From the NCBI GenBank assembly GCA_963677745.1, contig OY782391.1:1248001-1312000 (forward strand): DNA of 64,000 bases, written 5' to 3'. Below are positions 57,633 to 64,000 of the stretch, one piece after another. The translations under genes were made by a program, and so were the position numbers. Origin of the DNA: Candidatus Altimarinota bacterium. GTDB taxonomy: Bacteria; Patescibacteriota; Gracilibacteria; UBA1369. Positions within the stretch are counted from its first letter, which is position 1. Each line of letters begins with the position of its first letter. Below the pieces are notes generated by a model. The model was not told the origin of the DNA. It did not search any database and saw only the letters and a list, made by a program, of their open reading frames with translations.

Positions 57633-58751
57633 TCAAAGCAGCTCTTTCAGCAGTTTTTCGTGTTCAAAAAAGTTGTAAGTGCTTCGTAGTTTTTGGCTTT
57701 CCAGCTGGTTCCGTAGCGAAACATAATTAGTCTGGGTCTTTAAAAAAGACTTTTCCAGGGCAGTCAGATTGAAACTTTCATAATCCAGACAATATTCGCC
57801 CAAATTAATTGTCTGCAAAAAGGATTTGACCTTCTGGCTGTAGGAAAGTGCTATAAATGGAGTCACTGCAAGAATCGAAAAAATAATCGAATGAAGTCGC
57901 ATTCCAATCACCAATTCACTTCTGGAAATAATTTCCAAAACCTGTGAAAAATCCTGAACAGTTTTTAAGGTCATAGCTTCGGGGTTTACCAGTCTGTCGG
58001 CAACTTCGCGGTAACTGACCCGGTCATCGTCCAGGTCGGTTTGAAAAGGGATAAAAACTGTTTTCAAACGGTGTTTTTCCCATAAATAATCAATCATTCC
58101 GGCTACCTGTCCAGAAATTTCTTTTGAATTGCCGTTGATCCAGGGGCGCAAACTCAAAACAACCTGTTTTTGACGGGTGATGGATTTCTCCTGGTCATAA
58201 CCTATGCCGAAGGCGGGATCTGCCATTAGATGGATATTCTTTACACCCAGTGATTTTAGTAACAGCTCTGATTGTGAATCCCTGACCGTTACAAGCAAAG
58301 CCCGCTTAAACACAGCTGCGGTTAGTCTTCTGGCCAATTTGCTTTTAAGAGGACCGACGCTTTGGCTGATGCAAATCAATTTTTTATTGAAAATTCTGAA
58401 CCATATATATTGAACAAACCAGATCCAGACTGCACGGGGTTTTTCGTCAGTAAAAAGACCCCCGCCGCCCAATAAAACGATATCTGCCGCCGCCATCCGG
58501 GCGATGGTTTTCCATCCGGAGGTAGTAAACCAGAAACGAAAAAATGATCTGACGCCGGCCGGGAAATGAAGAACTGCCTGAACTCGAAAATCTGCGGCTG
58601 TCTGAGCCGGCTTGGCAGACATCACTGTAATATCTGAATGTGGCCAGGTTGATTTGATCAGATGTATCAGACCTCCCAAAATCGCATCGTCTCCCAGATT
58701 GGATGCTCCATAGTTACCGCAAACCACTATTTGTTTTTTGTCTGCCGCCAT
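57633..58751 (-). CDS. csaB: polysaccharide pyruvyl transferase CsaB family
   Basis: GNYGASNLGDDAIL, GGGGLF, VRD..S, ADPAF, GMRLHS, YSQKV. Confidence 0.88.
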   Translation of the reverse strand: MAADKKQIVVCGNYGASNLGDDAILGGLIHLIKSTWPHSDITVMSAKPAQTAADFRVQAVLHFPAGVRSFFRFWFTTSGWKTIARMAAADIVLLGGGGLFTDEKPRAVWIWFVQYIWFRIFNKKLICISQSVGPLKSKLARRLTAAVFKRALLVTVRDSQSELLLKSLGVKNIHLMADPAFGIGYDQEKSITRQKQVVLSLRPWINGNSKEISGQVAGMIDYLWEKHRLKTVFIPFQTDLDDDRVSYREVADRLVNPEAMTLKTVQDFSQVLEIISRSELVIGMRLHSIIFSILAVTPFIALSYSQKVKSFLQTINLGEYCLDYESFNLTALEKSFLKTQTNYVSLRNQLESQKLRSTYNFFEHEKLLKELL

Positions 58752-58823: not shown

Positions 58824-58914
58824 TTGACAAAAGAGTAAAAAAATAGTTTAATTCAATCTTGCTTAAAATTTCCGGAACGGTTGCGGCAAGATTTTGCTCC
58901 TTGAAATAAAGGCA
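58824..58914 (+). promoter_or_regulatory. promoter + 5' hairpin + boxA-like element of high-GC unit 1
   Basis: TTGACA-17-TTTAAT; AATCTTGC/GCAAGATT stem; TGCTCCTTGAAA; ATAAAGGCA. Confidence 0.7.
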
Positions 58915-58920
58915 CAAAGT

Positions 58921-59225
58921 CCGTACAGCACCTAAAAAGAGGCTAATTGCTCGACCAATGCTGTCTCTGCTTTTTAATCTGTCCCAAGTGGTCAGGGAAA
59001 AAGAGAGGGGTAACCTGGGAAAGCTGTAGCTTCCTTTAGGTGCTGTACGGCAATGGAAACAAAAGTCTGATCCCGACACATCGGTCGGGCAGACTGGCGG
59101 ATCTGGCGCTATTTCCAACCTTTCAAGAAGAAGGCAGCGCAGGTCCGCGTAAGGATTCTGACCGGCTCCGCATGCTGCGGGGCCAGTCTCACTGGTTACG
59201 CCGACCCAATGTGGGCGGCGCATGC
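58921..59225 (+). ncRNA. candidate highly structured 5' leader RNA
   Basis: Perfect 16-bp stem 58921-58936/59035-59050 enclosing several small hairpins, then four consecutive hairpins up to the SD. Confidence 0.55.
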
Positions 59226-59239
59226 GAGGAGAAAACGAC

Positions 59240-60490
59240 ATGAAGCAGAGCATTCTAACCAACCTCGCGGTCCTCGTGTGTACTGCCGTCCTGGTAGCGC
59301 TCACGGGGTCTGCGGCTGCTCAGGAGGGGCTCACGCCCGCCTGGCGGTACCACGCATCAACCGATCTCGGCCTGAGCCACTGCGAGTCCGCCTTCTTCGG
59401 AGACGGCAAGGCAATGGTCAACACCGCTCAGATCGCGAAGTCGACCAACGGGGTAACGATCTCTGGTGAAACGGGTAAGACCGTTCGCATCAGGTTCGTC
59501 TGTGAGCGCGCCCAGGAAAAGGGCGCTCGCAGCGAGCTCTTGAGGATCGGCCCCGAAGGTACGTACAACGCGAACCCCGGCGGCGCCGGTATGTCGGTCG
59601 GCTTCGACAAACCCACTGATGATCCCAACAAGACAGCCCTCCACAAGGCGCTGGCGAAGGGACGGGAGTGGGTGTTCACGGTCGGCGCACAGCCCCAGAC
59701 CATCGTGCTGACCTGGAGTGGTGAGTTGGGGAGCGACAAGTTGAGCGTAACTGTTCAACCGTTCGCACCTCCTCCCACCGTTCCCCAGGTGCAGGAAATG
59801 ATCGCTCCGGTCGAGCAGAAGGCGGATGAAGCGCAGACGACTGCCAACGACGCCTACAGCCGGGCAGCCCACGACAATCTCGAGAAGTACCGCTTCATCG
59901 CCGTCACGCTCGGCTACCAGCTGGGATTGAACACGCTCGCTCGAGACGGCGGCAACGCGGACATGGGGGCAAATCTGAACATCGACTACAGCTTCGGACC
60001 GGCAGGCGCCTTCAAGGGGCTCACCGGAATGGTAGCGATGCTCAACTTCGTCCAGAAGCCGGTCATGGAGGCTCCCAATGCGACCGGCTACAACAACTGG
60101 ATCGACTCGCAGACGCTCTACGTCGGCCCGAAGATCGGGTTCGACTACATGCCGGCCAAGTGGTTCGATCTCAGGGTGTTTGCTTCGCTGGGCGCGTTCA
60201 TCAGCTTCGACGGGTCGGTGCCGCTGACCCAGCTTCCCGACGGGAGACTCTTCACGTCGGAGGCACAAACGAACACGGCGCTCGGCTGGATGCTCATGGC
60301 ACAGCCGGGCTTCGTGATCGGCAACTTCCTCATTCAGCCCCAGATCGGCATCGGTGGCACGATGACCAAGGTGCAGACCGAACTGGGCCCGGACTTCGTC
60401 TGCTCGGCGCACGAACCCAACTGCGCCGAGCGCAGAGACGGGTTCGTGTTCAGGGTGCATGGCGGCCTGAACGCGGGAGTGATCTTCTAG
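59240..60490 (+). CDS. high-GC secreted protein with a C-terminal outer-membrane beta-barrel-like domain
   Basis: SD GAGGAG; signal peptide ending AAA/Q; alternating beta-strand pattern; ends GGLNAGVIF (terminal Phe). Confidence 0.75.
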   Translation: MKQSILTNLAVLVCTAVLVALTGSAAAQEGLTPAWRYHASTDLGLSHCESAFFGDGKAMVNTAQIAKSTNGVTISGETGKTVRIRFVCERAQEKGARSELLRIGPEGTYNANPGGAGMSVGFDKPTDDPNKTALHKALAKGREWVFTVGAQPQTIVLTWSGELGSDKLSVTVQPFAPPPTVPQVQEMIAPVEQKADEAQTTANDAYSRAAHDNLEKYRFIAVTLGYQLGLNTLARDGGNADMGANLNIDYSFGPAGAFKGLTGMVAMLNFVQKPVMEAPNATGYNNWIDSQTLYVGPKIGFDYMPAKWFDLRVFASLGAFISFDGSVPLTQLPDGRLFTSEAQTNTALGWMLMAQPGFVIGNFLIQPQIGIGGTMTKVQTELGPDFVCSAHEPNCAERRDGFVFRVHGGLNAGVIF

Positions 60491-60661: not shown

Positions 60662-62221
60662 ATGCTTCGAAGAAAAGGCGGGCCGGCCTTGTGGCTGGCC
60701 CAGGTAGTGACGAACCTGAGACGACCGCTGACAACGCCTCTGGGCCTCAGCATCTCTCTCACCATCGCAGCGCCGGCCGCCCTCGCGGGCTTGACCGGCT
60801 GCGAAAACAATCCGAGTCCGGCCGCGTGCTTGAACAGCGGCGACCCGTTCTGCGACCAAGAGCTGGACAACAACGGCAACGGCGGAACGGGCAACTCGGG
60901 GGCCGGCGGCAACACCAACGTGGCCTGTGCCGACAACCCCAACTACGGGAAGGACTGCCAACTCCCCGGGGGCGGCGTTGGCCACTGGGTCTGCGCCGGC
61001 AACGGCATCGACCTCGTCTGCGCCGGAAGCGGCACAGGCGGCAGCGGTGGTGGCGCAGGCGGCAACACGGCCGGCAACGGCGGGTCTGGTGGTGGCGAGT
61101 ATAACTGCGCCACGGACCCGAACAACGGCGATCCGTGCATCGCGGCTGATGGCACCAACGGCCACTGGGGTTGCAACGGGACGGGCTCTGCCCTGTTCTG
61201 TTACTCAGATGGCGGTGCCGGAGGCTCTGGCGGGACGGGCGGAGGCGGGCAGTACAACTGCGCCGACGACCCGCAGCTTGGCACCCCCTGTACGACCAGC
61301 GATGGGCATCAGGGCGCCAAGGTCTGCAACGTCTCCGGCACGGGGCTGGTCTGCCAGTGCACGGTCAACTGCAACGGAACGGGCGGCTCGGGCGGCGGCG
61401 GAACGGGCGGTAGCGGCGGTGGGGAGACCTACAACTGCTTGACCGATCCCGATCTCGGCGACATCTGCGTGATGGGCGTCGGGATCTGCAGCCGCACGGG
61501 CATGTATGTCTGCAACGCGGCCGGCGATGGCCTGCGCTGCAGCACCAATGCGGGTTCGCCCAACCCGGTCGGAGAGGTCTGCGCCAACGGCCTCGACGAT
61601 AACTGTGATGGAGCCAAGGACGAACAGCCCTGCGTCAACGGTGGCGGGGGCGGCTCCGGCGGCACGGGCGGCGGTGGTGGATCGGGAGGCAGCGGAGGAG
61701 CACTCAGCTGCACGGACGCCAGCTCGATGCAGGTGATGGCGGTGGGCGCAAGTTCGCTGCACATCCTGCTGATGGGCCAGGCAGTCTCCAATTCCAATCC
61801 GTGGATCAAGACGCTGACCAACAACCAGCTCTTCACCGCGTCTTCGGAAGGCGGGCTGTCTCTCTCCACCACGGCTGGCTCCTTCAACTACTTCGAGCCC
61901 AACGTCGGGGGCGGAGGTGATCCAATGCCGATGGTAGACACGCTCTACTGCCGGCAGATCGGCATCGATCCTCCCGTCCCGGCGAGTTGCAATGCGACGG
62001 TGATCGGCGATCGGCACAGCACGGAGTACATGGCGTCGCTGCGCATCGCCTGGCAGTGCTGGGACGACACCAGCACCTGTCCGATCGAGCTGATCGGACA
62101 TGTCCCGGGCGATCTGTTCGCTCTGCGTGGCAAGCCTGCCCCCGGCACTCCCCTGAGCCTCCCCGACTACGGCTACGAGGAGTTCGGCCTCGGTCAGGTC
62201 CCCCCGCTCTGCGCGCCGTAG
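60662..62221 (+). CDS. high-GC Cys/Gly-rich lipoprotein with a MopE-like putative metal-binding motif (myxobacterial type)
   Basis: SD GGAGG; lipobox LTGC; four Cys-rich repeats separated by GGSGG linkers; EVCANGLDDNCDG. Confidence 0.8.
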   Translation: MLRRKGGPALWLAQVVTNLRRPLTTPLGLSISLTIAAPAALAGLTGCENNPSPAACLNSGDPFCDQELDNNGNGGTGNSGAGGNTNVACADNPNYGKDCQLPGGGVGHWVCAGNGIDLVCAGSGTGGSGGGAGGNTAGNGGSGGGEYNCATDPNNGDPCIAADGTNGHWGCNGTGSALFCYSDGGAGGSGGTGGGGQYNCADDPQLGTPCTTSDGHQGAKVCNVSGTGLVCQCTVNCNGTGGSGGGGTGGSGGGETYNCLTDPDLGDICVMGVGICSRTGMYVCNAAGDGLRCSTNAGSPNPVGEVCANGLDDNCDGAKDEQPCVNGGGGGSGGTGGGGGSGGSGGALSCTDASSMQVMAVGASSLHILLMGQAVSNSNPWIKTLTNNQLFTASSEGGLSLSTTAGSFNYFEPNVGGGGDPMPMVDTLYCRQIGIDPPVPASCNATVIGDRHSTEYMASLRIAWQCWDDTSTCPIELIGHVPGDLFALRGKPAPGTPLSLPDYGYEEFGLGQVPPLCAP

Positions 62222-62464: not shown

Positions 62465-62562
62465 TTTACAAAACAATTATAATATGTTAAAACATGATCT
62501 TGCTTTGAATCTAATAAATTAGGTTCCTGGCAGAATCTTTGAAAACTCATTGGATAAAGGCA
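62465..62562 (+). promoter_or_regulatory. promoter + 5' hairpin + boxA-like element of high-GC unit 2
   Basis: TTTACA-17-(TG)TAAAAC; ATCTTGCT hairpin; TCTTTGAAAACT; ATAAAGGCA. Confidence 0.7.
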
Positions 62563-62770
62563 TCGGGATAACCGAATTGTTTCTAACAGAAAACAGGAGC
62601 TACGCATCTAGAAAATCAGCAACGACCTGCGCTTAGAAACAGCCCGGTTATCCCGATCATATCGGAAAAATCTTACCGGCGTCGCATCAGATGCCGGCGT
62701 CAGTGTCAGTAATAGTAGTCAACGTCCGTCTCAAATTTGGTCGCGCCTGAAAGCCGCGACTCACCAGTTA
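62562..62770 (+). ncRNA. candidate structured 5' leader RNA, unit 2
   Basis: 13-bp stem 62562-62574/62645-62657 plus 9-bp stem 62578-62586/62633-62641; further hairpins before SD AGGAGG. Confidence 0.55.
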
Positions 62771-62786
62771 CCAGGAGGAAACAGTC

Positions 62787-63527
62787 ATGAAGAAGAATAC
62801 ATGGATGGTGGTTGCGATTCTCGCCATGGCCGCTCTCACTTTCGCGAGTGGATGCGGCGACGGGGATTCGGCAACGTTCCCCAACCCCGACTACTGCCCG
62901 CCCGGCGAAACCTGCGAAGATGCAGGCGGCGGTGGCAGCGCGGGCGGCAACGTCCTCAACCCCGGCAGCGGTGGCAACGATCAGTCTCCGGGCACCTGCG
63001 AGAGCGTACCCGACACCGCCGACTTCCGCAGCTTCAAAGGCTGCATGACGGGCGTGGATCTGTCGGTGACCTGGCGGACGGGCGACCACAAGGAATTCCA
63101 CCTTGCTGGCAAGCGGTACCCGGAAACCGGCGTGGAGCAGGGTGAGATCGTCTACTTGAAGAGCACCCCCGACGATTGCGGCCCCGTGACATTCGTTGCT
63201 GTCAGCAGCAGCGGGTCGGTCGAGTTCGCCTTCCCTGAGACGGTGGACTGGTTCGTGGTTGACACGAGCATGGCCAGCATCATCTGGATGAAGTTGCACA
63301 ACGGTGCAGCTCCCAGTGACGCAGACATGCAGTCAGCCGAGTTCGGCAGCCTGGCGATCGACATCTTCGAGTGTGTGGAGTTGAACTCCAACTGCTCCCT
63401 GAAGTCGACCCTGCCGGGCGGCTGGCCGACCAGCGACGGCGACGAGATCGTGTTCGAAGAGGGCGCCGGTCTCAACGTCGAGGGCAGTGAGTGCGGCAAT
63501 CTGATTGTCGTCGCCCGAACCCGCTAA
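62787..63527 (+). CDS. high-GC lipoprotein (myxobacterial style)
   Basis: SD AGGAGG; lipobox FASGC; Gly-rich linker; Cys-containing acidic domain. Confidence 0.8.
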   Translation: MKKNTWMVVAILAMAALTFASGCGDGDSATFPNPDYCPPGETCEDAGGGGSAGGNVLNPGSGGNDQSPGTCESVPDTADFRSFKGCMTGVDLSVTWRTGDHKEFHLAGKRYPETGVEQGEIVYLKSTPDDCGPVTFVAVSSSGSVEFAFPETVDWFVVDTSMASIIWMKLHNGAAPSDADMQSAEFGSLAIDIFECVELNSNCSLKSTLPGGWPTSDGDEIVFEEGAGLNVEGSECGNLIVVARTR

Positions 63528-63590
63528 GCCTTACAGGCGAAGCGGGGACGGGTCCTGTCCTCCTCCGCAGAGCGCGCCCCCGCTCAGCCG

Positions 63591-63655
63591 CCGCACACCC
63601 CTCCACTCAGGCAACTGAAAAGGCCTGGGTGGAGGGGGAATGCGGATTTTCCTTT
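63591..63655. terminator. terminator of high-GC unit 2
   Basis: CCCCTCCACTCAGGC...GCCTGGGTGGAGGGG stem extended by CCGCA/TGCGG, then a T-rich tail. Confidence 0.8.
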
Positions 63656-63709
63656 CATCCTTTATCCAATGAGTTTCTCCTTCCAAATTTAAATCCCAAT
63701 CAACCTCTT

Positions 63710-64000
63710 TCAGGTTTCTTCCCGTTGAGTCAGCTTGAGATTGTAAATTTCTTCATCAGTATATTCACCTTTTTCAGGCTGTCTCGTATTCTGGCTATTG
63801 TTAATATTTGTCACAATAAGCGGCTTCTGACGCTCGGAAAGTAGTGAACTTAAAATTTGTTCGCGCTTTAGCAGGTTCAACAGATAGCCCCCGTATCCGC
63901 TTTTCAATGTTCTTTCCGCCAGCAGCCGTAACTGATTGGCATCAATATATTCCATTTTATAGGCCACCTCCTCAATACAGCCGATTTTAATATCCTGTCT
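63710..64000 (-). CDS. rfbA: glucose-1-phosphate thymidylyltransferase, C-terminal part (runs off the window)
   Basis: RQDIKIGCIEEVAYKMEYIDANQL...KSGYGGYLL matches the RmlA/RfbA C-terminus. Confidence 0.88.
   Translation of the reverse strand, partial: RQDIKIGCIEEVAYKMEYIDANQLRLLAERTLKSGYGGYLLNLLKREQILSSLLSERQKPLIVTNINNSQNTRQPEKGEYTDEEIYNLKLTQREET

Follow-up and report, generated by a model that had tools for sequence, protein, structure and literature searches.

Nus complexes bound to boxA, and helices that join a leader to its trailer, are seen as devices of ribosomal RNA (rRNA) synthesis, with a few boxA-regulated genes besides. The leader of the phage lambda N gene carries nutL, composed of boxA and boxB, and then a large RNase III stem, followed by the N gene. 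In the rrn operons of Escherichia coli, boxB, boxA and boxC follow one another a short way past the promoter; boxC, which is the almost invariant central part of the leader strand in a covarying leader-trailer helix, overlaps an RNase III site and is thought to be anchored at the polymerase by boxA and NusB until the trailer emerges (PMC10250234, in the part of the source available). The E. coli boxA consensus is given as UGCUCUUUAACA, and rrn operons of Bacillus subtilis are described as starting with a small 5'-terminal hairpin that is followed at once by the NusB-binding, boxA-like consensus AUGAUCUUUGAAA (both from the accessible part of PMC13753749). The antitermination complex is reported to speed transcription and, by bridging the 5' and 3' ends, to raise the processing that RNase III performs co-transcriptionally (excerpt of bioRxiv 10.64898/2026.03.17.712431). 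BoxA-dependent Nus control of non-rRNA genes, suhB and others, has been reported as well, with many sites predicted in diverse species (PMC5725501, excerpt). Here we describe a 5' leader from a Candidatus Altimarinota bacterium, found in a 64,000-nt stretch of DNA (the window) that comprises positions 1248001-1312000 of the + strand of a genome assembled as a single contig (1.336 Mb, 47% GC). This leader (leader 2, 62497-62786) precedes a lipoprotein-like gene (gene F, 62787-63527), and an upstream counterpart (leader 1, 58856-59239) precedes a further group of GC-rich genes, island E. Positions are those of the window and refer to its + strand unless stated otherwise. We propose, with a probability of roughly 45%, that leader 2 is a Nus/boxA-type leader combined with a leader-trailer helix around the mRNA, and that this arrangement is tied to GC-rich genes for secreted proteins.

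Leader 2 is a real, conserved and structured 5' leader of gene F, and is cis-acting. The same layout, consisting of a promoter, a hairpin, a boxA-like box, a leader strand termed the 5' box, a long hairpin and a ribosome-binding site, occurs in all six genomes of the comparison set, which represent four genera (the genome studied here, G001, G002, G003, G014 and G024). Three of these were recovered when the DNA of leader 2 was searched for in 41 genomes, ten of which had a match with an expectation value (E) of at most 0.01: true homologues beyond the own genome were those of G002 (86%, 215 nt), G001 (73%) and G024 (78%, 97 nt), and the remaining matches were short and promoter-like. G003 and G014 were added through a protein search with gene F, which has relatives in 6 of 205 genomes from the order; these six include the own genome and belong to a single family. 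Members of the family and order have genomes of ~0.8-1.9 Mb. The predicted promoter at 62465-62493 consists of a -35 element TTTACA (62465-62470) and a -10 element TAAAAC (62488-62493), with 17 nt between them that include TG at 62485-62486. All six genomes retain both elements and the TGn motif, and transcription would start near 62497.

The fold of the whole leader (294 nt) has a z-score (z) of -2.72, with 1 of 200 shuffled sequences equally stable, and for the 120 nt around the long stem z is -5.35, with none of 200 shuffles as stable. At the 5' end, the minimum-energy fold contains a two-tier terminal hairpin, P1 (62500-62533), which takes the place that boxB has in rRNA operons. P1 covaries: across the six genomes 98.3% of the alignment cells are paired and 6 of the 10 pairs have changed on both sides, which none of 500 shuffles matched, and in slid controls the paired cells drop to 35-63%. 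Owing to its G·U pairs, the hairpin is more stable on the + strand than on the - strand in each of the six genomes, and because these pairs are strand-specific we conclude that leader 2 very probably works as RNA.

Directly 3' of P1 lies a boxA-like box, AUCUUUGAAAAC (62535-62546), which is kept in place in all six genomes and is deviant in G014. The box ends in the ten letters AUCUUUGAAA, which form the core of the B. subtilis rrn consensus; over the full length, AGAAUCUUUGAAA in the window differs from the published AUGAUCUUUGAAA at 2 of 13 positions and is identical in the last ten, as a match of sequence only. At up to two mismatches, the B. subtilis 13-mer occurs in 8 of 596 upstream regions. 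Two of these eight, those of leader 2 and of a GC-rich island designated C, fall among the nine regions upstream of genes with a GC content at third codon positions (GC3) of at least 0.75. Leader 1 matches the 13-mer at three mismatches. A lineage consensus of 11 letters was tried as well (49 matches in the genome, 6 of them intergenic, and three of these six before genes with GC3 of at least 0.77); this count is circular, because the consensus was derived from those same leaders, and it was not used.

The end of the box overlaps the 5' box (62543-62560), a leader strand with the core AUUGGA that stands where rRNA operons have boxC. Together with the 3' box, a trailer strand at 63659-63676 that is found 34 nt past the stop of the convergently oriented rmlA, it constitutes an 18-nt perfect inverted repeat. 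The corresponding helices in the six genomes measure 18, 16, 18, 15, 19 and 16 bp, with arms 939-1145 nt apart, and the minimum-energy fold of the full transcript holds the whole helix in each of them. At least six columns are altered on both arms around the constant AUUGGA core (hand count), and the complementarity ends sharply. A pyrimidine- and U-rich tract follows the 3' box in all six genomes (63677-63690 in the window). In the window the 18-mer is present at these two sites only, and it belongs to no transposon or repeat family.

A perfect inverted repeat of this kind could also act in DNA, either as a pair of recombinase sites that flip the 1.1-kb gene segment or as the ends of an exchangeable cassette, with the RNA folds being secondary. 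All 102 base pairs of the six helices are Watson-Crick pairs, with no G·U pair and no mismatch, unlike P1 and the long hairpin, which contain G·U pairs; such a helix suits a DNA-level repeat at least as well. The sharp ends found in all six genomes, the coincidence of the repeat with a jump in GC content and the constant core with co-varying flanks agree with this explanation, and an inversion would, judging from the map, put the gene in sense behind the rmlA operon. We nevertheless consider it improbable. No recombinase family was found in the 8 genes (~12 kb) upstream or the 10 genes (~14 kb) downstream, and all six genomes have the same single orientation. The contigs of four sequencing runs contain no strand-changing joint, three of the runs spanning the stretch unchanged and the fourth being fragmented with 62500-62638 uncovered, in contigs that can miss minor forms. 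Within the genus, the long hairpin enclosed by the repeat shows 73-86% identity, as does the sequence outside, and the segment is thus not swapped as a unit. Finally, the repeat is one of 90 long-range inverted repeats of at least 14 nt in the genome, among which no family of sites was seen.

Under the rRNA-operon-like reading, the repeat would form an RNA helix next to a second structure of a size that RNase III can cleave. This is P2, a long interrupted hairpin (62562-62657) whose arms at 62562-62586 and 62633-62657 comprise 25 nt each and are 88% complementary. The original prediction had described a stem of 13 + 9 bp around a domain of ~46 nt; the stem is there and its arms are 46 nt apart, and it folds as 13 + 10 bp. 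A counterpart is found in each of the six genomes (21-27 bp, z from -4.9 to -8.6, none of 200 shuffles as stable in any of them), and begins 0-7 nt past the 5' box, so that P2 and the long-range helix could stack. Within the genus the sequence of P2 is conserved, with a change from A-U to G-C via an A·C intermediate, and between genera it is unrelated. The suggestion that selection acts on structure is therefore well founded, since a long stem is kept in the same place in six of six genomes with unrelated sequences between genera, and P1 covaries. The other elements first named are likewise all present: ATAAAGGC (62554-62561) with the interrupted stem directly after it, both small hairpins and AGGAGG. 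Conservation in relatives does not extend to the word ATAAAGGC of leader 2. An integron attC site was considered for P2 and rejected: its stem shows AAC/GTT in the window, but AAC/GTC and GAC/GTC in G002 and G001 (by reading), the P2 stems of other genera are unrelated, and the conserved R''...AAC / GTT...R' ends are not kept.

Downstream of P2, the leader has a variable part in which two small hairpins were read from the sequence, one at 62676-62697 with the arms CCGGCGTC (62676-62683) and GATGCCGG (62690-62697), and one at 62739-62761 with the arms GGTCGCG (62739-62745) and CGCGACT (62755-62761). Their sequence is not conserved, and relatives have different small hairpins in this part. The ribosome-binding site AGGAGG (62773-62778) is located 8 nt before the ATG at 62787. 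A long, conserved and folded leader that ends at a strong ribosome-binding site might also be expected of a riboswitch, an attenuator or a thermometer, by which a ligand or a protein would be sensed and translation of the lipoprotein controlled. This we regard as very improbable. Searches of Rfam with the leaders found nothing at the gathering score or at E up to 5, and neither the interior of P2 nor the region before the ribosome-binding site is conserved between genera, so there is no conserved pocket; the ribosome-binding site is without a conserved pairing partner, and no leader peptide was seen.

The 3' untranslated region of gene F contains a GC-rich hairpin (63598-63637) that is followed by no U-tract on the + strand. 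In the form CCCACC...GGTGGG it is found at the same place in all six genomes, with the 3' box after it. The same untranslated region contains CUGUCCUCCUCCGCAG (63554-63575), which all three genomes of the genus retain; this sequence is complementary to a ribosome-binding site, and the AGGAGG at 62773-62778 is a possible pairing partner.

Leader 1 has been held to share the architecture of leader 2. Including its promoter (58824-58852) it extends over 58824-59239, and it resembles leader 2 in having a promoter, a 5' hairpin (58856-58892), a box (GCUCCUUGAAA, 58896-58906) and a long stem. It differs in its rod domain, a sequence-conserved element of ~130 nt that is closed by 58921-58936 and 59035-59050, and in having no trailer partner. 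In six sequences of leader 1, 25 of 59 predicted pairs have changed on both sides. The rod (58921-59050) has conserved blocks and a conserved apical CAAGU loop in the six sequences and no match in Rfam, and is a candidate for a new RNA motif. A DNA search with leader 1 gave a result that resembles that of leader 2, and in each genome a distance of 3.4-3.6 kb separates the two leaders. Aligned with MAFFT, they agree poorly outside short words. As for whether these shared words exceed chance, the answer depends on how they are counted: singly they do not (with 4 occurrences of ATAAAGGC in the window where 2.38 are expected, and 2 of ATCTTGCTT where 0.79 are), and as an ordered and spaced set they occur in the two leaders only in the 1.34-Mb genome, with none in the reversed control.

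The organism's own 16S rRNA gene provides a further comparison. Its leader and trailer form a predicted helix of ~27 bp (z -4.15), and 6 of 9 pairs in the leader's hairpin and box covary. The 16S and 23S genes are unlinked (genome 136623-146060), each with its own promoter, and the 16S gene is followed by its own terminator. The genome encodes nusB (genome 1178033-1178404), which adjoins rnc, the RNase III gene (1178541-1178930), and a single nusG; as there is one NusG only, a specialised paralogue of the LoaP/UpxY type was ruled out.

Several of our results weigh against the rRNA-operon-like reading. The structural relationship with leader 1 and with the 16S leader that was implied at the outset did not materialise in searches with covariance models and nhmmer profiles. 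A covariance model of leader 2 recovers all six copies of leader 2 (E 3e-14 to 3e-9) and misses both leader 1 and the 16S leader at E up to 10; a model of the hairpin and box of the 16S leader found neither leader 1 nor leader 2; and nhmmer profiles of leader 1, of leader 2 and of both found only themselves in the genome, and not the 16S leader. In the 16S leader, the strand that takes part in the helix precedes both the hairpin and the U-rich box, an order unlike that of leader 2, and the 16S box, ACUUUUUGAAC, matches the published boxA poorly. Leader 1 has no partner strand in a trailer (z from -1.18 to +1.45 in five of five genomes). The enrichment of the boxA consensus before GC-rich genes appears modest (2/9 versus 8/596, with a hand-estimated p of ~0.006), the loose motifs shared by the leaders are at chance frequency, and the loose pattern TCTTRY..YCYTTGAAA is not enriched in 36 genomes of the family, with 108 occurrences compared to 117 of the reversed control. 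With 15-19 bp, the long-range helix is below the typical length of an RNase III stalk. The SuhB and Rho families were not found in the genome, which is 97.9% complete by marker genes, and this excludes the canonical E. coli complex and an anti-Rho role. Moreover, none of the sequencing runs is RNA, so that the transcript start, the 3' end and any cleavage are predictions.

Part of this evidence would fit a Nus-independent leader that serves mRNA stability or translation only. In such a leader, the 5'-terminal hairpin would block decay that depends on the 5' end, the long hairpin and the pairing of the 5' and 3' ends would be RNase III or protective elements, and the boxA-like letters would be conserved on other grounds, for instance because they belong to the helix and its flank. 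The same structures and the same conservation would be expected as with an rRNA-like leader, and RNase III is encoded; the negative tests for similarity to rrn leaders and the failure to find SuhB and Rho agree with this explanation, as does the end of the box, GAAAAC, which already lies within the long-range helix in two to three genomes. The rest of the box speaks against it. In five of six genomes the box is conserved outside any helix, as UCUUUG or UCCUUG between P1 and the 5' box, it matches the published NusB-binding consensus at the published position, and a similar box recurs in leader 1, in the leaders of islands A and C, and in another two genera, with no helix that uses it. We regard a role in stability or translation alone as the next most probable explanation, at well below even odds.

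Given the layout of the locus and the short boxA-like motif, an rRNA-operon-like mechanism seems to us the best supported one, at somewhat under even odds. The original prediction had compared the long stem to the processing stalk of an rrn leader; the analogy as such gains from the boxA-like box and from the pairing of 62543-62560 with 63659-63676, but the stem itself is a local hairpin. Transcription would start at ~62497, and the first 37 nt would fold into the terminal hairpin. NusB and S10 may then bind the box AUCUUUGAAAAC and modify RNA polymerase through NusG. The 5' box (18 nt) would thereby be tethered near the polymerase until it can pair with the 3' box, which would emerge ~1.1 kb later, and this pairing would enclose the coding region in a leader-trailer helix. 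RNase III could cut this helix, the adjacent 23-bp hairpin, or both; the 5' end with its Nus factors would then come off, and the remaining mRNA would have ends that are paired and protected. Since no Rho was found, we suggest that the arrangement serves fast, pause-resistant transcription and the correct long-range folding of GC-rich messages that are prone to form structures. A wider form of this idea, which we put forward as a speculation that is more probably wrong than right, is that a family of small-genome bacteria, for which Rho was sought in the genome studied here and not found, might treat a set of messages of GC-rich secreted-protein genes like rRNA: a boxA-bound leader would ride with the polymerase and pair with the trailer ~1 kb downstream, transcription may end at the U-rich tract, and the message would be cut out by RNase III.

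The association of the leader type with GC-rich genes is seen beyond gene F. The GC3 of islands E and F is 0.81-0.82, compared to 0.44-0.55 in adjacent genes, and corresponding differences between island genes and their neighbours were found in G014 (0.83-0.87 versus 0.31), G003 (0.59-0.68 versus 0.12-0.19) and G024 (0.59-0.74 versus 0.37-0.39). In the six genomes the GC3 of island genes is ~0.2-0.5 above that of the neighbours, whatever the GC content of the host. In two further genera, a promoter, a hairpin, UCCUUGAAAAC or ACUUUGACAA and a long stem stand before a GC-rich gene with a signal peptide, and in the own genome similar boxes are present in the leaders of the GC-rich islands A and C (at 98734 and 852835 of the genome). 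A metagenome scan in which the first gene of island E served as query yielded two loci. On the metagenome contig L025, GC-rich E genes (GC3 0.82 and 0.77) retain leader 1. The homologue of gene F on this contig (9050-10110) has a host-like GC3 of 0.56, with a plain short leader and promoter and an ordinary terminator, and is without the long hairpin and without the box pair.

The islands of the window are situated on the + strand between two convergent polysaccharide genes, namely a pyruvyl transferase gene (57633-58751, - strand) and rmlA (- strand), which starts beyond the end of the window and has its stop at 63710. Island E consists of two GC-rich genes (59240-60490 and 60662-62221) and island F of gene F, which encodes a lipoprotein-like protein of 246 amino acids (GC3 0.81); each island has an AT-rich promoter and a long leader in front. 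No Pfam family matches the protein of gene F, only 3 clusters match it among 5.8 billion, and a protein atlas gave no usable match. The C-terminal end of the protein encoded by the first gene of island E (59240-60490) resembles an outer-membrane beta-barrel, and its weak neighbours in the atlas, from Myxococcota and Acidobacteriota and including one DUF2715 cluster (score 0.90-0.91), serve as leads only. The contigs of run X5 break at 62500-62638 and 63607-63636, with loose ends that match nothing there, and the leader may differ in another strain. Further islands are present in the genome at 98801-100400, 511601-516200, 849901-852800 and 913601-915900. The islands of the window and the genome have 62-69% GC in a genome of 47% GC, and encode signal-peptide or Cys/Gly-rich proteins. 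Around the gene of island A, a 13-nt perfect inverted repeat (genome 98871-98883 and 100245-100257), of which ~0.02 would be expected by chance according to a hand estimate, may represent a second leader-trailer pair; its leader contains the boxA-like GCUCAUUGAAA at 98734.

The natural mRNA described here joins a hairpin, a boxA-like box, a leader strand and a trailer strand. If the proposed mechanism is true, this would be the first boxA-bearing leader-trailer helix around a protein-coding gene, and a dedicated route of expression, across genera, for genes whose codon GC is 0.2-0.5 above that of the host. The finding also links the leader type to a pattern, the occurrence in several genera of islands of secreted-protein genes with a codon GC far above that of the host. 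Confirmation would offer a direct test of whether tethering by boxA has a general role in long-range RNA folding, and could reveal what NusB does in a genome that yielded neither Rho nor SuhB. A DNA-level function, if true, would amount to a whole-gene inversion switch with no recombinase nearby, which is likewise unusual.

Among known systems, invertons resemble the locus in the perfect inverted repeat, of 15-19 bp here, around a 1.1-kb segment downstream of a fixed promoter; they differ from it in that the genes scanned around the locus include no recombinase, only one orientation was observed and the repeat occurs once in the genome. The lambda N leader shares with leader 2 a Nus site, a long hairpin of the RNase III type and the ribosome-binding site of the gene thereafter, but there is no N-like protein known here, the order of hairpin and box is that of rrn rather than nut, and the lambda leader is without a 5'-3' helix around its gene. 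With boxA-regulated non-rRNA genes and CRISPR arrays, leader 2 has in common a boxA-like box in the leader of a non-rRNA transcript. As far as the available excerpt describes them, those boxA sites are found near the ribosome-binding site and act by repressing translation, a task that Rho completes (PMC5725501), whereas in leader 2 the box precedes the ribosome-binding site by ~240 nt, Rho was not found in the genome, and there is a partner in the trailer. From an rRNA operon the locus differs in its cargo, which is a gene for a protein of 246 amino acids, in its shorter helix (15-19 bp versus 25-40 bp), in that SuhB and Rho were not found, and in the lack of detectable homology to the organism's own 16S leader. 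It resembles an rRNA operon leader in the hairpin after the promoter, the U-rich box and the leader strand with its partner beyond the cargo, in the constant core within a covarying helix, and in the presence of genes for NusB, NusG and RNase III in the genome.

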